Part shown: in pieces, positions 2,278 through 34,929 of the stretch
How positions within the stretch are numbered: the first letter of the stretch is position 1
How the letters are laid out: each line of letters starts with the position of its first letter
Assembly (NCBI GenBank): GCA_041678455.1
Contig: JBAYOH010000001.1
Coordinates: 7,387 to 71,386 of the forward strand
DNA: 64,000 nt
Direction of reading: 5' to 3'
Source: Methanofastidiosum sp.
GTDB taxonomy: Archaea; Methanobacteriota_B; Thermococci; Methanofastidiosales; Methanofastidiosaceae
The notes under the pieces: model-generated
Told to the model about the DNA's origin: nothing
The model's database searches: none
The model's input: the letters and a program-made list of their open reading frames with translations, nothing else
Program-made: the position numbers and the translations under genes

Positions 2278-2910
2278 TTATTCTATCATGTAAAGCAAGG
2301 CGTTTACTATTGCTGCACCGACTGTACTCCCGCCTTTTCGACCAAGAGTTGTTATGTATGGAACTTTAGTTTTAATCAAAGCTTCTTTTGACTCTGATGC
2401 ACCAACAAAACCAACTGGCACCCCAACGATAAGGTCAGGAGATGCTTTATTGGAATTAATTGAATCGATAAGTGTGAAAAGAGCCGTTGGTGCATTTCCA
2501 ATTACAAATATCTTTATTTTATCGTTTAGGATCGCCTTTTCCATTGCGGCCATAGATCTAGTTATACCTTTTGACCTTGATTCTTCAATAACGTCATCAT
2601 CACTTACGTAGCATAAGACCTTGCCACCAAACTTTGAGAGAATTCTTTTGTTTATCCCTTCCGAAGCCATTTTTGTATCAGTATAAATATAAGATCCTTT
2701 TTTCAGAGATTCAATAGCATTGTCAATGGCCCCTTCGCTTATCTTAGTAATACTTGTGTACTCAAAGTCGGCCGTTGTATGTATGACTCTCTTTATAACT
2801 TTACCATGGCTTTCTTCAAATTTAATATCTCCTAACTCTTTTGTAATTATTTCAAAACTCTTTCTTTCAATTTTAACAGGATCCTTTTCAAATTCAATCA
2901 TCATGTTCAA
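2278..2910 (-). CDS. cbiC: Cobalt-precorrin-8 methylmutase CbiC/CobH
   Basis: 210 aa. CbiC-family motifs (HTTADFEY, TKMASEGI, GNAPTAL). Confidence 0.9.
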   Translation of the reverse strand: MNMMIEFEKDPVKIERKSFEIITKELGDIKFEESHGKVIKRVIHTTADFEYTSITKISEGAIDNAIESLKKGSYIYTDTKMASEGINKRILSKFGGKVLCYVSDDDVIEESRSKGITRSMAAMEKAILNDKIKIFVIGNAPTALFTLIDSINSNKASPDLIVGVPVGFVGASESKEALIKTKVPYITTLGRKGGSTVGAAIVNALLYMIE

Positions 2911-3767
2911 CTCAAGCCATTGTTTAATATATCTTCAATCATTTTATAATTAAGCTCTTTTTGCGATAAATATAAAAAGTTATCAATATTTTCAATCCAG
3001 ATATTTCTGATATCCTCTGAATTACAGTTTTTATGCGAGGAAATATTTCTCATGCCTAGACTATCCTCTTCAGGGAATATAAAATTATGATGATGTAACA
3101 CGCCTAGGGTAGGTACCCCAGTTATTTTTTCAAGATACGTTGTTCCACTAGAGAGTATGGAACGTTCACCCCTAAATTTATTGATTATAAAACCTTTAAC
3201 ATATTTCTGATACTCTGTGGGTAAAAGAGAAAAAGTTCCGTACAATCCGGCGAATACTCCGCCGATGTTTATATCACCAACAACAATTACTGGAGATTTT
3301 GTAATTTCTGCCGTTTTCATATTAGCTATGTCGTATTTGGAAATATTAATCTCAACAGGTGAACCTGACCCCTCACAAATCACTATGTCGTATTTTTTTG
3401 AAAGATTTGAATAGCATTCATGTATTTCCTTTAACAATTCCCCTCTAATGTTTTCCATGTCAGATTTCTTAAAATCCCCCAATGGTTTTCCTTTAAGAAT
3501 AATTTGATATGAGCCTTTCCCCTTTGGCTTTAGCAAAATTGGATTCATATCGTACTCTGGTTCTATGTTAGAAACCCACGCTTGGAAACTCTGGGATATG
3601 CTTATTTCATGACCTTTGTCTGTGACAAAGGAGTTTAGGGATAAATTTTGAGCTTTGAATGGTGCAACTGAAAATCCTTTTTTATAAAAATACCTACAAA
3701 GCAAAGCTGTTATGATACTTTTCCCAGCTCCTGATGTTGCTGCCTGGATAATTAAGGATAAGCTCAG
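2907..3767 (-). CDS. CobQ-like paralog with the P-loop/CobQ-CobB-MinD nucleotide-binding domain only and no glutamine amidotransferase domain. The ORF track starts at TTG 3704 (MLCRYFYKK...), but the conserved P-loop (LIIQAATSGAGKS) lies in frame upstream. I propose a CTG start at 3767..3765 overlapping the cbiP stop as CTGA.
   Basis: About 45% identity to the central domain of the adjacent CbiP (ATSGAGKS, VAPFKAQNLSLNSFVT, ICEGSGSPVEINI, ANMKTAEI). The upstream frame is open from a TGA near 3840, with no ATG/GTG/TTG before 3704. GGAGGA lies 6 nt upstream of the CTG. Confidence 0.65.
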   Translation of the reverse strand: MSLSLIIQAATSGAGKSIITALLCRYFYKKGFSVAPFKAQNLSLNSFVTDKGHEISISQSFQAWVSNIEPEYDMNPILLKPKGKGSYQIILKGKPLGDFKKSDMENIRGELLKEIHECYSNLSKKYDIVICEGSGSPVEINISKYDIANMKTAEITKSPVIVVGDINIGGVFAGLYGTFSLLPTEYQKYVKGFIINKFRGERSILSSGTTYLEKITGVPTLGVLHHHNFIFPEEDSLGMRNISSHKNCNSEDIRNIWIENIDNFLYLSQKELNYKMIEDILNNGLS

Positions 3768-5596
3768 GGTGAATCCTCCAAGCCGATAGTAGTGTAAAGT
3801 TGATGCATATCTATATTTTCTTCAAAAGTTTTTGCTAGCTTTTCAAGGTTTAAATCTATTACATGATTATAGTCAAAGTATGTCTCTTCATTTGTATCGG
3901 CTATTTTCTTAGATATCAAACTTAAAAAATATTTCCTAAATGAAGGTAAATCAAATACGCCGTGTATATATGTCCCCATTACCTTGAGATTAGTATCTAT
4001 ACAACCTTCAAAATGAGTCCCATCGGCGTCGTCTATTTGAAAAATTGGCCTATTTGCATGCATTATTGTTTTACCCATGTGAATTTCATAGCCTCGTATA
4101 AAGCCATCCCCCACCCGGTATTCCTCGAGAACTTTGCCATTCACCTGCACAGTTTTTTTATCGTATAAATCAAAGTAGGTAGAAACGTCTAGAAGACCCA
4201 GGCCATCGTACTCTGCTTCTTCTTCGCCTTCTATACCTTTGTCAATAATTTTATTACCGAGCATTTGGTATCCGCCGCATATTCCAATTATGGGGATAGA
4301 GCCTGACCTTTTTTTTATTGATTCAAAGAATCCTTTTTGTTTTAACCATTTTAAATCTTCAACTGTATTTTTAGTTCCTGGGATAATAATTGCATCGACC
4401 TTCTTGACTTTTGTTGGATCATCAATAAAAATCACTGAAACATCTTTCTCCAAACCTAGTGCATCAAAATCTGTAAAATTAGATATCCTTGGAAGTTTGA
4501 TTACGCCTATTAAAATTTTTGAACTATCCATCTCTTCTGACTTTATAAACATTGAATCTTCTGTTGGAAGATTAAGCTCTATGTGTGGAACAATGCCCAA
4601 AACTGGGACACCGACTAATCTTTCAATTTCTTCTATTCCGTCATGAAGAGAAGATTTATCTCCCCTTAGATTATTTATTATTACTCCTTTGAACCGTTTC
4701 CTATCTTTATCGTGAAGTAAGTTTAATGTTCCATAGATATATGCAAAAGATCCACCCCATTCTATATTGACAACTAATATGCATGGAGCGTCTGCAATCT
4801 CTGCAGTTTTCATATTTGCTATTTCACAATCTCTTATGTTAATTTCTGCTGGACTTCCTGCTCCTTCGAGTACAACGACATCATTTAATCTTCTAAGAAA
4901 ATGGAGGTTACTCTTTGCAATTTCAAGACCTTTTGACCTTGTAAAGGAATAATACTCTTCGACGTCCATGTCTTTGTAAGGTTTCCCCTCGATTATCACT
5001 TGGGATACGTTGTCTTTTTTCGGCTTCAGCAGAATAGGGTTCATGTATGCTCTAGGTTTAATCCTTGCAGCCTTTGCTTGGAGGTCTTGGATATTTGCAA
5101 TTTCTTCTCCAAATTCAGTCACAAAGGAGTTAAGTGACATGTTCTGGGATTTGAAGGGAGCTACCTTATAATCTCTGTTTGATAGAATCCTGCACAGGGC
5201 CGCGACCGTTAAAGATTTACCTGCGCCAGAGGTTGCCCCCAATATCATGATAGTTTTGGCATATTTATGGTGTGATGTTTCAATTGTTTTTTTTATCGAG
5301 AGAATTTCATCTTTAGAACAATTAAAGTATTCATCTTTTAATAACTCAAAGCATCTCTTTGCAACATCATTTCTATGTATCCAGAAACAATCTTTGCAAC
5401 TCCACGTTTTATTTCCCTTTTTAGAGGTTATTTCTTTTCCGAGAAAGGGATCATTGCAGGGATAAAAAGGACAATAGCAAAATGTACAATCTTGACCCTC
5501 AAAGTGACATGGATAATACTCACAGGTTCTATTACTGCCAATAATCCCATTTTTAAATTGTTTTTTTACTTCTTCAGTCAAATTTTCTTGAGACAT
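3764..5596 (-). CDS. cbiP: Cobyric acid synthase CbiP/CobQ (ATPase domain plus class-I GATase domain) with an extra N-terminal Cys-rich domain of about 120 aa (CEYYPCHFEGQDCTFCYCPFYPC ... CKDC)
   Basis: 610 aa. P-loop GATSGAGKS, CobQ core, and GATase motifs IIIPGTKNT / GICGGYQMLG. The N-terminal Cys cluster resembles the small 'zf-like' Cys-rich domain seen fused to some archaeal corrin enzymes. Confidence 0.9.
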   Translation of the reverse strand: MSQENLTEEVKKQFKNGIIGSNRTCEYYPCHFEGQDCTFCYCPFYPCNDPFLGKEITSKKGNKTWSCKDCFWIHRNDVAKRCFELLKDEYFNCSKDEILSIKKTIETSHHKYAKTIMILGATSGAGKSLTVAALCRILSNRDYKVAPFKSQNMSLNSFVTEFGEEIANIQDLQAKAARIKPRAYMNPILLKPKKDNVSQVIIEGKPYKDMDVEEYYSFTRSKGLEIAKSNLHFLRRLNDVVVLEGAGSPAEINIRDCEIANMKTAEIADAPCILVVNIEWGGSFAYIYGTLNLLHDKDRKRFKGVIINNLRGDKSSLHDGIEEIERLVGVPVLGIVPHIELNLPTEDSMFIKSEEMDSSKILIGVIKLPRISNFTDFDALGLEKDVSVIFIDDPTKVKKVDAIIIPGTKNTVEDLKWLKQKGFFESIKKRSGSIPIIGICGGYQMLGNKIIDKGIEGEEEAEYDGLGLLDVSTYFDLYDKKTVQVNGKVLEEYRVGDGFIRGYEIHMGKTIMHANRPIFQIDDADGTHFEGCIDTNLKVMGTYIHGVFDLPSFRKYFLSLISKKIADTNEETYFDYNHVIDLNLEKLAKTFEENIDMHQLYTTIGLEDSP

Positions 5597-32130: not shown

Positions 32131-33783
32131 ATTATTATGTCAAAGGTCAAAATAACAGATACAACATTGAGGGATGCTCATCAGTCACTGATAGCCACAA
32201 GGCTTGAAACTGAAGATATGCTAGAGATAGTTGAAGAAATGGATAAGGTGGGGTACCATTCATTTGAGATGTGGGGCGGGGCAACTTTTGATTCTGCCCT
32301 AAGGTATCTAAATGAAGATCCTTGGGAAAGAATTACAAAGCTAAAGGAAATTGCTCCTAAAACACCCTTTCAAATGCTCTTAAGAGGACAAAATCTTGTT
32401 GGGTACAAGCATTACCCTGATGACATTGTCCATAAATTTGTTGAGACGTCTTTTACAAGAGGCATTGATATCTTTAGGATCTTTGACGCCCTAAATGACG
32501 TTAGGAACATGGAGGTTCCAATTGAGGCCATTAAAAAGGTAGGCGGACACGCCCAAGCTGCTCTAAGCTATACAGTTAGCCCGGTCCACACAATTGATTA
32601 TTACATCAAAGTTGCCGAAGAAATGGTTGCCTTAGATATTAACTCTATTTGCATAAAAGATATGGCAGGCCTGATTAATCCAATGGATGCCGTAAATCTT
32701 GTCAAATCGCTTAAAGAAAATTTTGATCTTCCAGTATGTTTGCATTCACACTGCACAAGTGGGATGGCGCCAACAAGCTACTTCAAAGCAATTGAAGCAG
32801 GTGTCGACATAATAGATACAGCAATGGGCCCTTTTTCATTTGGGACAAGCCAGCCTGGTGTAGAAACTATGTATGCTATGCTTAAAAATACCCAATACAA
32901 ATCAGACATAGATATAGAAAGAGTCTATAAGATTTCCAATTACTTCAAAAAATTATTGGATAAATACAAAGGGCTCCTCAGTGAAGCTTCAGTCGCAGTT
33001 AATACTCAAATTCTTCATTTCCAGATACCAGGGGGTATGATGTCAAATCTTGTGTCCCAGCTTAAGGAGCAAAATGTGGGAGACAGACTTGACGAAATAC
33101 TTCTTGAAGTTCCAAGGGTAAGGAAAGAATTAGGATACCCTCCCTTAGTTACTCCTCTTAGCCAGATCGTTGGCGCCCAAGCTACCTTGAATGTTCTTTC
33201 CGGTGAGAGATACAAACTGATTCCAAATGAAGTTAAGAACTATGTTAAGGGGCTTTACGGCAAGCCCGCTGCACCTATTGACAAAGATATTCAGAAAATT
33301 ATAATTGGCGACGAAAAAGTTTCTTATGAAAAATCGCCTGATTTAAAGAATCCTTCTTACCAGAAATTTAAAGATGAGGTAAAGGATAAAATTGAAAAGG
33401 AAGAAGACATACTTTCTTATGCACTTTTCCCAGAGATTGCACTTGCTTTCTTTGAGAAAAGAAAAAATCATGTAGCTAAATCAAAAGTTGAACACAAAGA
33501 AATAGAAAAAGCAGCACCTAAAGAGATAACAAAAACTCAGCCAGTGAAACAGCAGCCACAAACTAATGGAGGCGTCTCTTTGAAGGCCCCTCTGCCAGGA
33601 GCTATCCTAAAAATAGTTGGAGAGATAGGAAAGCCTGTCAAAAAAAATTCGGTCATTTTTATCATATCTGCAATGAAGATGGAGAATGAGGTCGTGTCTC
33701 CCACTTCTGGAGTCCTAGAAAAAGTCTATGTAAAAGAAGGTGACGTTGTACGAACAGGCGACATTCTAGCAACTATAGCATAG
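32131..33783 (+). CDS. pycB: Pyruvate carboxylase subunit B / oxaloacetate decarboxylase alpha-type carboxyltransferase with a C-terminal biotinyl domain
   Basis: Motifs TTLRDAHQS, HCHSGMAPT-like HSHCTSGMAPTS, and biotin attachment SAMKMEN. Start set at ATG 32131 (GGAG 6 nt upstream) rather than the track TTG at 32113. Confidence 0.9.
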   Translation: MIMSKVKITDTTLRDAHQSLIATRLETEDMLEIVEEMDKVGYHSFEMWGGATFDSALRYLNEDPWERITKLKEIAPKTPFQMLLRGQNLVGYKHYPDDIVHKFVETSFTRGIDIFRIFDALNDVRNMEVPIEAIKKVGGHAQAALSYTVSPVHTIDYYIKVAEEMVALDINSICIKDMAGLINPMDAVNLVKSLKENFDLPVCLHSHCTSGMAPTSYFKAIEAGVDIIDTAMGPFSFGTSQPGVETMYAMLKNTQYKSDIDIERVYKISNYFKKLLDKYKGLLSEASVAVNTQILHFQIPGGMMSNLVSQLKEQNVGDRLDEILLEVPRVRKELGYPPLVTPLSQIVGAQATLNVLSGERYKLIPNEVKNYVKGLYGKPAAPIDKDIQKIIIGDEKVSYEKSPDLKNPSYQKFKDEVKDKIEKEEDILSYALFPEIALAFFEKRKNHVAKSKVEHKEIEKAAPKEITKTQPVKQQPQTNGGVSLKAPLPGAILKIVGEIGKPVKKNSVIFIISAMKMENEVVSPTSGVLEKVYVKEGDVVRTGDILATIA

Positions 33784-33931
33784 AATTATTTTATTTTATA
33801 CTTTTCTTATAGTATATATTTTTACTCAAGTTACGAGGGTATATTTAAAATAGCCAAATATCTTAAAAACAGCAAACAACTACTATATTTGGAAATTAAA
33901 TAACGACTAAATATTTAAGAGAGTGAAGTAG

Positions 33932-34681
33932 CTGATAGACGAGATAAGAATAATCCCTGTTTTAGACGTACCACTAATAAAAGAAAAAGACGACCTTGCG
34001 AAGATTATTTCTGAAAGGATTAAACTAGAGGATAGCGATATTGTTGTCATTTGTGAAACTGTCATTTCTAAGGCACAAGGGAGAGTTGTAGATATCAAGG
34101 AAATAAAGCCCTGTAATCGAGCTATAGAGCTCAGCAGAAAAACTGGAAAAGACCCAAGACTTGTACAACTTATCCTAGATGAATCAAAGGAAGTGTTGAA
34201 AGTTGGAGACAGCGTTATTGTAGTTGAAACAAAAGATGGAAATATATGCGCAAGCGCTGGCATAGATGTTTCAAATGTCTGTGGCGACGAATCATTTGTT
34301 GGGCTTCTGCCAAAAGATCCAGATCAGGAAGCAGGAAAAATTAGAGTTTCATTAAGAAAAATCACAGGAAAAGAAGTGGCCGTAATTATATCGGATACAC
34401 AAGGAAGGCCTTTTAGAAGTGGTGCTATTGGAGTTGCAATTGGAGTTTCAGGTATGGAGCCTTTGTGGAAAAGGGCTGGAGAAAAAGATCTTTATGGGTA
34501 TGAGTTAAAATCCTCCATAATAGCAACTGCAGACGAAGCAGCTTCTACGGCATCACTTCTTATGGGTCAAGCAAACGAGGGGATCCCTGTTGTAGTTATT
34601 AGAGGCGCAAGATATCTAAAAGGTGAAGGCTCTTCAAAAGAGCTTTTGAGGGAAAAAGAAAAGGATCTATTTCGGATCTAA
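33932..34681 (+). CDS. cofE: Coenzyme F420-0:gamma-glutamyl ligase family protein (CofE-like). The homologous N-terminus (LIDEIRIIPVLDVPLIKEKDDLAKII...) extends 87 codons upstream of the track GTG at 34193 and begins at CTG 33932, directly after an in-frame TAG (GTG-AAG-TAG-CTG).
   Basis: CofE motifs ASAGIDVSN, ISDTQGRPFRSG and VVVIRG; the frame was verified codon by codon. No ATG/GTG/TTG exists between the TAG and 34193. GAGAGTGA lies 6 nt upstream of the CTG. Confidence 0.7.
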   Translation: MIDEIRIIPVLDVPLIKEKDDLAKIISERIKLEDSDIVVICETVISKAQGRVVDIKEIKPCNRAIELSRKTGKDPRLVQLILDESKEVLKVGDSVIVVETKDGNICASAGIDVSNVCGDESFVGLLPKDPDQEAGKIRVSLRKITGKEVAVIISDTQGRPFRSGAIGVAIGVSGMEPLWKRAGEKDLYGYELKSSIIATADEAASTASLLMGQANEGIPVVVIRGARYLKGEGSSKELLREKEKDLFRI

Positions 34682-34929
34682 TAGAGGATATTGATTGGTC
34701 CTTTTTTTATTTTGCCTTCTGGAAAACTGATTTTGATTAATTTTTCCTCAGCTTTTATCTTGTAGCCTTTTGGAAAAGTGATATATCTCATCCCAGCTAA
34801 GCCTTGCAAGTTGTCAGTTTTTATCATCAATCCTTCAATGTTTCTCTCAAGGAAGCTAATAACTTTTGGGTCAATTTCTTTTACGATAAAGACTTCTCCT
34901 TCATTAAGTACTGATAAAACTGTTGCCAT
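34678..34929 (-). CDS. FeoA-like small SH3-like domain protein
   Basis: 83 aa. L..L..GE...I..I......L...G...G..I pattern. Sits immediately downstream of the znuB-like permease. Confidence 0.45.
   Translation of the reverse strand: MATVLSVLNEGEVFIVKEIDPKVISFLERNIEGLMIKTDNLQGLAGMRYITFPKGYKIKAEEKLIKISFPEGKIKKGPINILY

Follow-up and report, generated by a model that had tools for sequence, protein, structure and literature searches.

A conserved CUG codon directly after an in-frame stop is the probable translation start of cofE in Methanofastidiosum

Translation initiation at near-cognate codons is known for prokaryotes, the AUU codon of bacterial infC being an example, and CUG is among the starts allowed by translation table 11, a CTG fraction of roughly 0.01–0.1% of the starts being typical of prokaryotes. 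Furthermore, some methanogens encode pyrrolysine with TAG. Concerning the efficiency and frequency of CUG starts, initiation at CUG was reported to amount to 1–2% of that at AUG in E. coli (bioRxiv 10.1101/063800), and CTG represented the start codon of 5% of the sORFs newly found by Ribo-seq in Methanosarcina mazei (PMC11456600). Only 2 AUG-to-CUG switches were recorded among 61,358 starts, and the prior for a CUG start is low because such starts are extremely rare in curated comparisons (PMC5622118).

A candidate for this type of initiation was encountered in a 64-kb stretch of DNA (64,000 nucleotides, hereafter the window) from the uncultured methanogen Methanofastidiosum, namely in the coenzyme-F420 biosynthesis gene cofE. 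Similar to the prokaryotic near-cognate starts, cofE features a single-mismatch codon at the correct distance behind a Shine-Dalgarno (SD) element, presumably read by the initiator tRNA, and, by analogy to the CUG of E. coli initiating at 1–2% of AUG (bioRxiv 10.1101/063800), a low initiation efficiency would be expected. Unlike in the prokaryotic near-cognate examples, the CUG of cofE is conserved genus-wide and belongs to an archaeal cofactor-biosynthesis gene, for which no autoregulatory logic is known.

On the forward strand, the start region of cofE (33919–33940) reads G AGA GTG AAG TAG CTG ATA GAC, with the GTG at 33923–33925, the TAG at 33929–33931, and the CTG at 33932–33934. The GTG is preceded by TTAAGAGA, and the CTG is followed by ATA GAC GAG ATA AGA ATA ATC CCT GTT. 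Read from the CTG, the coding sequence of the coenzyme F420-0:L-glutamate ligase comprises 249 codons plus a TAA stop (33932–34681; stop codon at 34679–34681), and its product begins LIDEIRIIPVLDVPLIKEKDDLAKII. The first ATG, GTG, or TTG of this frame in the ORF listing is the GTG at 34193–34195, being codon 88 and located 87 codons downstream of the CTG; a start at this position entails the loss of 87 conserved residues. An earlier note, prepared from the letters of this DNA, had described the succession GTG-AAG-TAG-CTG (33923–33934) with a CofE frame open from the TAG, a GTG cut off from this frame by the TAG (33929–33931), and no canonical start before GTG 34193 with about 87 residues lost otherwise, all of which agreed with our reading of the frame. 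The ATA at 33935 was also considered as a start and rejected, as most relatives carry ACA or GTA at this position.

The 249-aa product is full-length CofE, exceeding the cut-offs of curated equivalog models. It scored 305.7 bits against TIGR01916 (cut-off 180.65), with profile positions 1–244 of 244 aligned to residues 5–248, and 313.2 bits against NF009809 (cut-off 274), while positions 3–218 of 218 of the profile PF01996 were matched. The closest proteins are CofE sequences of Candidatus Methanofastidiosum with 90–92% identity; the G+C content of the sequence is 32–41%. A match to the CofE of A. fulgidus (2G9I) was obtained at an E-value of 1e-65, in which A. fulgidus residue 3 corresponds to residue 5 of the product. 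The N-terminus of the Methanofastidiosum protein thus lies within about two residues of that of the crystallised A. fulgidus enzyme (2G9I, 2PHN, 7ULD), and the function as F420-0:gamma-glutamyl ligase, with GTP-dependent glutamylation of F420-0, is predicted by homology to this solved structure. A convergent 83-aa ORF without a Pfam match is located on the reverse strand (34678–34929), overlapping the cofE stop by 4 nt, and occupies the same position in the loci L002 and L003.

To compare the start region among relatives, orthologous cofE regions were collected from GTDB genomes, JGI metagenomes, and Logan/ENA/NCBI contigs, yielding approximately 24 distinct Methanofastidiosum loci, which were analyzed by means of a codon table around the start, an alignment of the upstream DNA, and a neighbour-joining tree. 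An in-frame stop directly before the CTG was present in 12 of the approximately 24 loci, the codon at this position being TAG, TAA, CAG, AAA, GCA, or GAA among the relatives. The arrangement GTG-AAR-TAG-CTG also occurs in L001, L002/L006, L004, L005, L009, L014, L085, L087, L088, and L091, so the TAG is shared by at least ten other distinct contigs originating from independent samples and assemblers. The TAG-bearing loci formed one clade in the tree, with the CAG-bearing loci L003 and L084 nested within it, which looks like a reversion. L013 carries TAA at the position of the TAG and its sister L008 carries AAA; as judged from these codons, the stop in L013 arose independently and not as TAG. 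A second in-frame TAA is located five codons further upstream (codon −6) in L010/L092/L093 and L086, and, in the loci of group B (L011, L012, L095–L099), the loss of one nucleotide between GTGAA and the start places the GTG out of frame.

Despite these changes in frame and stops, all of the approximately 24 loci show nucleotide-level conservation of the block AAGAGAGTGAA, even those in which an extra 125-aa ORF overlaps it (L002, L010, L013, L086, and L087 types). Taken together, stops at two positions, an indel that breaks the frame, and the conserved, purine-rich block a few bases ahead of a conserved NTG codon indicate that the region represents a 5' leader with a ribosome-binding site rather than coding sequence. 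The codon at 33932, in turn, is CTG everywhere except for a subclade of group B featuring TTG (CTG in 14 and TTG in 4 of the 18 gap-free distinct loci). CTG 33932–33934, the proposed near-cognate initiation codon, is the sole in-frame, stop-free NTG common to all loci. Hence, an NTG is conserved in the orthologues, and the sequence upstream of it evolves as non-coding DNA. The alignment of orthologous N-termini that had been suggested in the earlier note accordingly revealed CTG or TTG throughout and a stop before the CTG in half of the loci. A TTG replacing the CTG in relatives had been regarded there as a sign of an assembly-specific lesion; such a TTG does exist, in a minority subclade, where it marks a start codon and not a lesion of this kind.

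Codon usage provides a control for this interpretation. In the window, CTG and TTG account for 5.6% and 13.6% of the Leu codons, respectively, and 13 other invariant Leu columns of cofE mostly feature CTT, CTA, or TTA; the codon of Leu column 125 does not vary either. This control is supportive of the CTG as a start, not decisive, and the invariance of the GTG as well as that of the CTG can each have more than one explanation. Regarding codons 2–87, the 11 stop-bearing loci showed dN/dS values of 0.03–0.28, mostly about 0.1, at dS values from 0.15 to more than 2, similar to what was obtained for the C-terminal part of cofE. Values of about 0.1 indicate that the N-terminal region is translated and that the gene is not decaying. 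Among 46 more distant cofE loci, a canonical start was usually located −1 to +2 codons from the equivalent of the CTG. Unlike other CofE lineages, which employ ATG, GTG, or TTG here or at an adjacent position, Methanofastidiosum uses CTG.

The SD-like element GAGAGTGA (33919–33926, forward strand) is part of the conserved block and ends 5 nt before the CTG. The earlier note had recognized the element correctly, its distance of 6 nt requiring adjustment to 5 nt. To assess the pairing potential, an assumed anti-SD sequence, GAUCACCUCCU, was folded against positions −20 to −3 of each start; it corresponds to the 16S 3' end as generally found in archaea, rather than to a sequence read from the genome studied. 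With this assumed anti-SD, the duplex energy was −7.9 kcal/mol for CTG 33932, +0.1 kcal/mol for GTG 33923, and −2.7 kcal/mol for GTG 34193, compared to medians of −6.1 kcal/mol for 29 secure gene starts and −2.4 kcal/mol for the background. The value of −7.9 kcal/mol was reached by only 3.8% of random positions. On the basis of the same assumed anti-SD, the CTG is preceded by a ribosome-binding site at functional spacing, the pairing of which is stronger than that of the median real start in the window. The GTG at 34193–34195, by comparison, features no SD, its −2.7 kcal/mol being at background level, and is an internal Val codon preceded by 86 codons under purifying selection.

Further upstream, the spacer between pycB and cofE contains the AT-rich box CCAAATATCTTAAAAA (33854–33869, forward strand), about 65 nt upstream of the CTG. 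In the alignment of the upstream DNA, this box is kept in loci sharing the pycB-cofE arrangement and is missing where extra genes are located upstream (L002, L010, L013, L086, and L087 types). Judging by its sequence, the box is a candidate archaeal BRE/TATA promoter element. Searches for a riboswitch or structured leader returned no Rfam match to the cofE leader at E-values up to 1, and this leader folded no better than shuffled sequence (z = 0.62). In L002 (LNGC01000100.1, 2112–2780), pycB and cofE are separated by two small inserted genes, encoding a 96-aa HTH_45 protein and the 125-aa ORF mentioned above, which has no Pfam match. The TGA stop of the latter lies about 11 nt inside cofE, and cofE in L002 may be translationally coupled to this ORF. 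The upstream sequence type of L002 is shared by L010, L013, L086, and L087.

Considering these results, SD-led initiation of cofE at the near-cognate CUG 33932, conserved across the genus, is highly probable, and we infer that the ribosome does start at this codon. The earlier note had listed CUG initiation among its readings, and the comparative evidence, i.e., an upstream region evolving as non-coding DNA, a codon that is always YTG, and the SD element, speaks in its favor. The element GAGAGUGA, 5 nt upstream, would position the ribosome on the CUG, which the initiator tRNA presumably reads as Met. GTG 33923 would then belong to the SD element, and the segment GTG-AAG-TAG (33923–33931, forward strand) would be a non-coding stretch up to the start, with the TAG located in the spacer, where the sequence appears to drift freely. 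Most likely, cofE is intact and expressed, and the TAG resides in a non-coding leader. The arrangement would be ancestral to the genus, with a CTG start in most lineages and TTG in one subclade, and the weak start is expected to keep the CofE level low. For loci without a stop (L003, L007, L008, L010, and L060), initiation may take place at an upstream GTG or ATG.

The TAG allows for other interpretations, two of which had been raised in the earlier note. Readthrough or recoding, in which translation starts at GTG 33923 and the TAG is decoded, as pyrrolysine or through near-cognate suppression, to give V-K-X-L-I-D-E, draws on the GTG, which does not vary within the main group and shares the cofE frame in the window, and on the Q, K, or Y codons of relatives at the TAG position each being one nucleotide away from TAG. 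As in the pyrrolysine recoding of methylotrophic methanogens, an in-frame TAG lies beside a conserved coding region in a methanogen. Unlike in that system, the TAG of cofE precedes the conserved protein, its position is not conserved and holds TAA in one lineage, and TAG is a common stop in this genome. The codon is neither specifically TAG nor conserved (TAA in L013; CAG, AAA, GCA, and GAA elsewhere), the GTG does not share the cofE frame in group B, and, lacking an SD (+0.1 kcal/mol), it is itself situated inside the SD serving the CTG. Of the 56 long ORFs of the window, 9 end in TAG, among them the adjacent upstream gene pycB (TAG at 33781–33783), which identifies TAG as an ordinary stop in this genome; an alternative genetic code with TAG as a sense codon was rejected for the same reason. 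No tRNA, suppressor, or pyl genes were found within the 64-kb window, and a limited literature search retrieved no statement on pyrrolysine use in Methanofastidiosa, which is weak negative evidence. Being contradicted by the TAA of L013, the frame in group B, the absent SD, and TAG serving as a normal stop, decoding of the TAG appears very improbable. The second interpretation, a recent pseudogene (CAG or AAG to TAG) or a sequencing or assembly error, leaving at most a 162-aa product from GTG 34193, could refer to the truncated gene models of 172 aa and 162 aa in relatives (P0030, P0031, and P0056) and to the nearest full-length relative, L003, having CAG instead of TAG. It conflicts with the occurrence of the TAG in at least ten other distinct contigs and with the divergence of the TAG clade, the members of which differ at dS values from 0.3 to above 1 while codons 2–87 stay at a dN/dS of about 0.1. 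Signs of relaxed selection and of a private lesion were not found, the stop being common to a diverged clade. In addition, the truncated product is short of 87 residues of the conserved PF01996 domain, and its GTG has no SD. We consider a fresh nonsense mutation or an error hardly credible.

Two further scenarios assign a function to the stop abutting the CTG. According to a termination-reinitiation model, a short uORF ends at the TAG, and ribosomes reinitiate on the weak CUG. The stop directly adjoins the CTG in 12 loci, in six of which (L004, L005, L014, L085, L002, and L009) an ATG-initiated uORF of 6 to 8 codons ends there; several relatives feature ATG-TTT-AAG-AGA-GTG-AAR-TAG, the window GTG-AAG-TAG. 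The CTG of cobQ (see below), which overlaps the upstream stop as CTGA, can be regarded as analogous, and termination-reinitiation has been described in archaea and bacteria as a means of coupling genes that overlap or lie very close together (PMC10666635). A study on reinitiation at non-canonical codons (PMC4648390) was set aside, since it concerns eukaryotic expression. On the other hand, the window has ATA in place of the uORF ATG, leaving the GTG without an SD as the sole uORF start; an upstream ATG is missing from L013 and L087, CTG and SD occur without any stop in half of the loci, and the SD alone suffices to explain the positioning. Reinitiation as the cause of the cofE start is accordingly rated as improbable. 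The other scenario, relaxed start stringency in Methanofastidiosum with CUG as a regular, selectable start and a functional stop abutting it, is doubtful but somewhat less remote. In that case, the stop (TAG|CTG in cofE, CTGA in cobQ) could pass terminating ribosomes on to the weak start or, instead, prevent N-terminally extended products. An SD-backed CTG at the start position was found for 2 of about 52 genes in the window (cofE and cobQ), and a scan of the sequence preceding the start of every long ORF detected no other SD-backed CTG, ATA, ATT, or ATC start.

The gene for the N-terminal (ATPase) half of cobQ is located on the reverse strand (2907–3767; 286 codons) and has CTG 3767–3765 at its start position. 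In the stop-to-stop frame (2907–3821, reverse strand), positions 2–262 of NF001989 match residues 22–283, and the first canonical start is residue 40. The start reads GGAGGATTCACC-CTG-AGC-TTA-TCC on the reverse strand, the CTG overlapping the TGA stop (3766–3764) of an upstream 610-aa gene by 4 nt, as CTGA. An SD, GGAGGAT, precedes the CTG by 5 nt and yielded −9.3 kcal/mol with the assumed anti-SD. In the closest relatives, L164 (1498–1506) and L166 (1280–1288), the corresponding sequence is GGAGGATTC[G/A]CC ATG AGC TTA, representing a classical ATGA overlap; the protein P0121 is 91% identical. Since these relatives have ATG at the same place, the cobQ start position is certain. Similar to ATGA coupling (PMC10666635), the start of the N-terminal half of cobQ and the stop of the upstream gene overlap by 4 nt, which read ATGA in the relatives. 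Unlike in ATGA coupling, the overlap of the window's cobQ is CTGA, and cofE has no overlapping upstream gene, only the two-codon GTG-AAG-TAG. A second CTG start in cobQ, parallel to that of cofE, had been noted previously; the CTG and its SD are indeed present, whereas the conservation seen for cofE is not, the closest relatives carrying ATG. By this comparison, the cobQ CTG results from a lineage-specific substitution in the window, unlike the conserved CTG of cofE. It may still function, with the help of SD pairing and coupling, or may reflect a polymorphism or an error. In L166 (ERZ2647912, coverage 0.74x), cobQ is split at about 1370–1380 by a 1-nt deletion in an A-run (aaaaagg vs. aaaaaagg), resulting in a truncated 213-aa gene call (P0122); given the low coverage, this deletion is probably an assembly error.

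The CTG start of cofE has already been called by NCBI in three relatives. The proteins P0002 (MTEEIR), P0003 (MTDEIR), and P0004 (MIEEIR), corresponding to the loci L085, L005, and L014, have their initial M placed exactly on the CTG directly after the TAG. Elsewhere, truncated cofE models of 172 aa or 162 aa (P0030, P0031, and P0056) and, where no stop intervenes, GTG- or ATG-extended models (P0001, P0005–P0007, P0010, and P0028) are found, because the gene callers are limited to ATG, GTG, and TTG. Such callers truncate cofE (162–172 aa) or extend it artificially from the GTG, and, with a mis-called cofE, the F420 pathway can seem interrupted when metabolism is reconstructed from Methanofastidiosum MAGs. 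For an in-frame stop just 5' of a conserved N-terminus, orthologues should be compared before a pseudogene or recoding is called. A CUG start kept throughout a genus is uncommon, CUG starts being very rare in comparative data (PMC5622118), and its retention suggests selection for, or tolerance of, low CofE synthesis, or else unusually permissive initiation in this lineage.

Detailed inspection of the collected loci also revealed several features of individual cofE sequences. The window region 33763–34030 is identical to positions 150–420 of the Logan contig L001 over the intergenic region and the first approximately 30 cofE codons, after which the two diverge sharply, with dS values of 0.40 over codons 2–87 and 0.08 in the C-terminal part; this mosaic suggests recombination between strains. 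L091 (Ga0116143_10054155, about 850–860) has a second, internal in-frame stop in cofE (PLI*EKDD, the near-identical L009 having PLIKEKDD), which would reflect a true pseudogene within one population or else an assembly error. In L043 and L065 (Nitrososphaerota / Bathycorpusculum cofE, at about position 3001), the first canonical start is located six codons downstream of the expected CofE N-termini, VIPIKGLPL and VIPIEGLPL, and these genes may be further cases of non-canonical or mis-placed cofE starts in other archaea.
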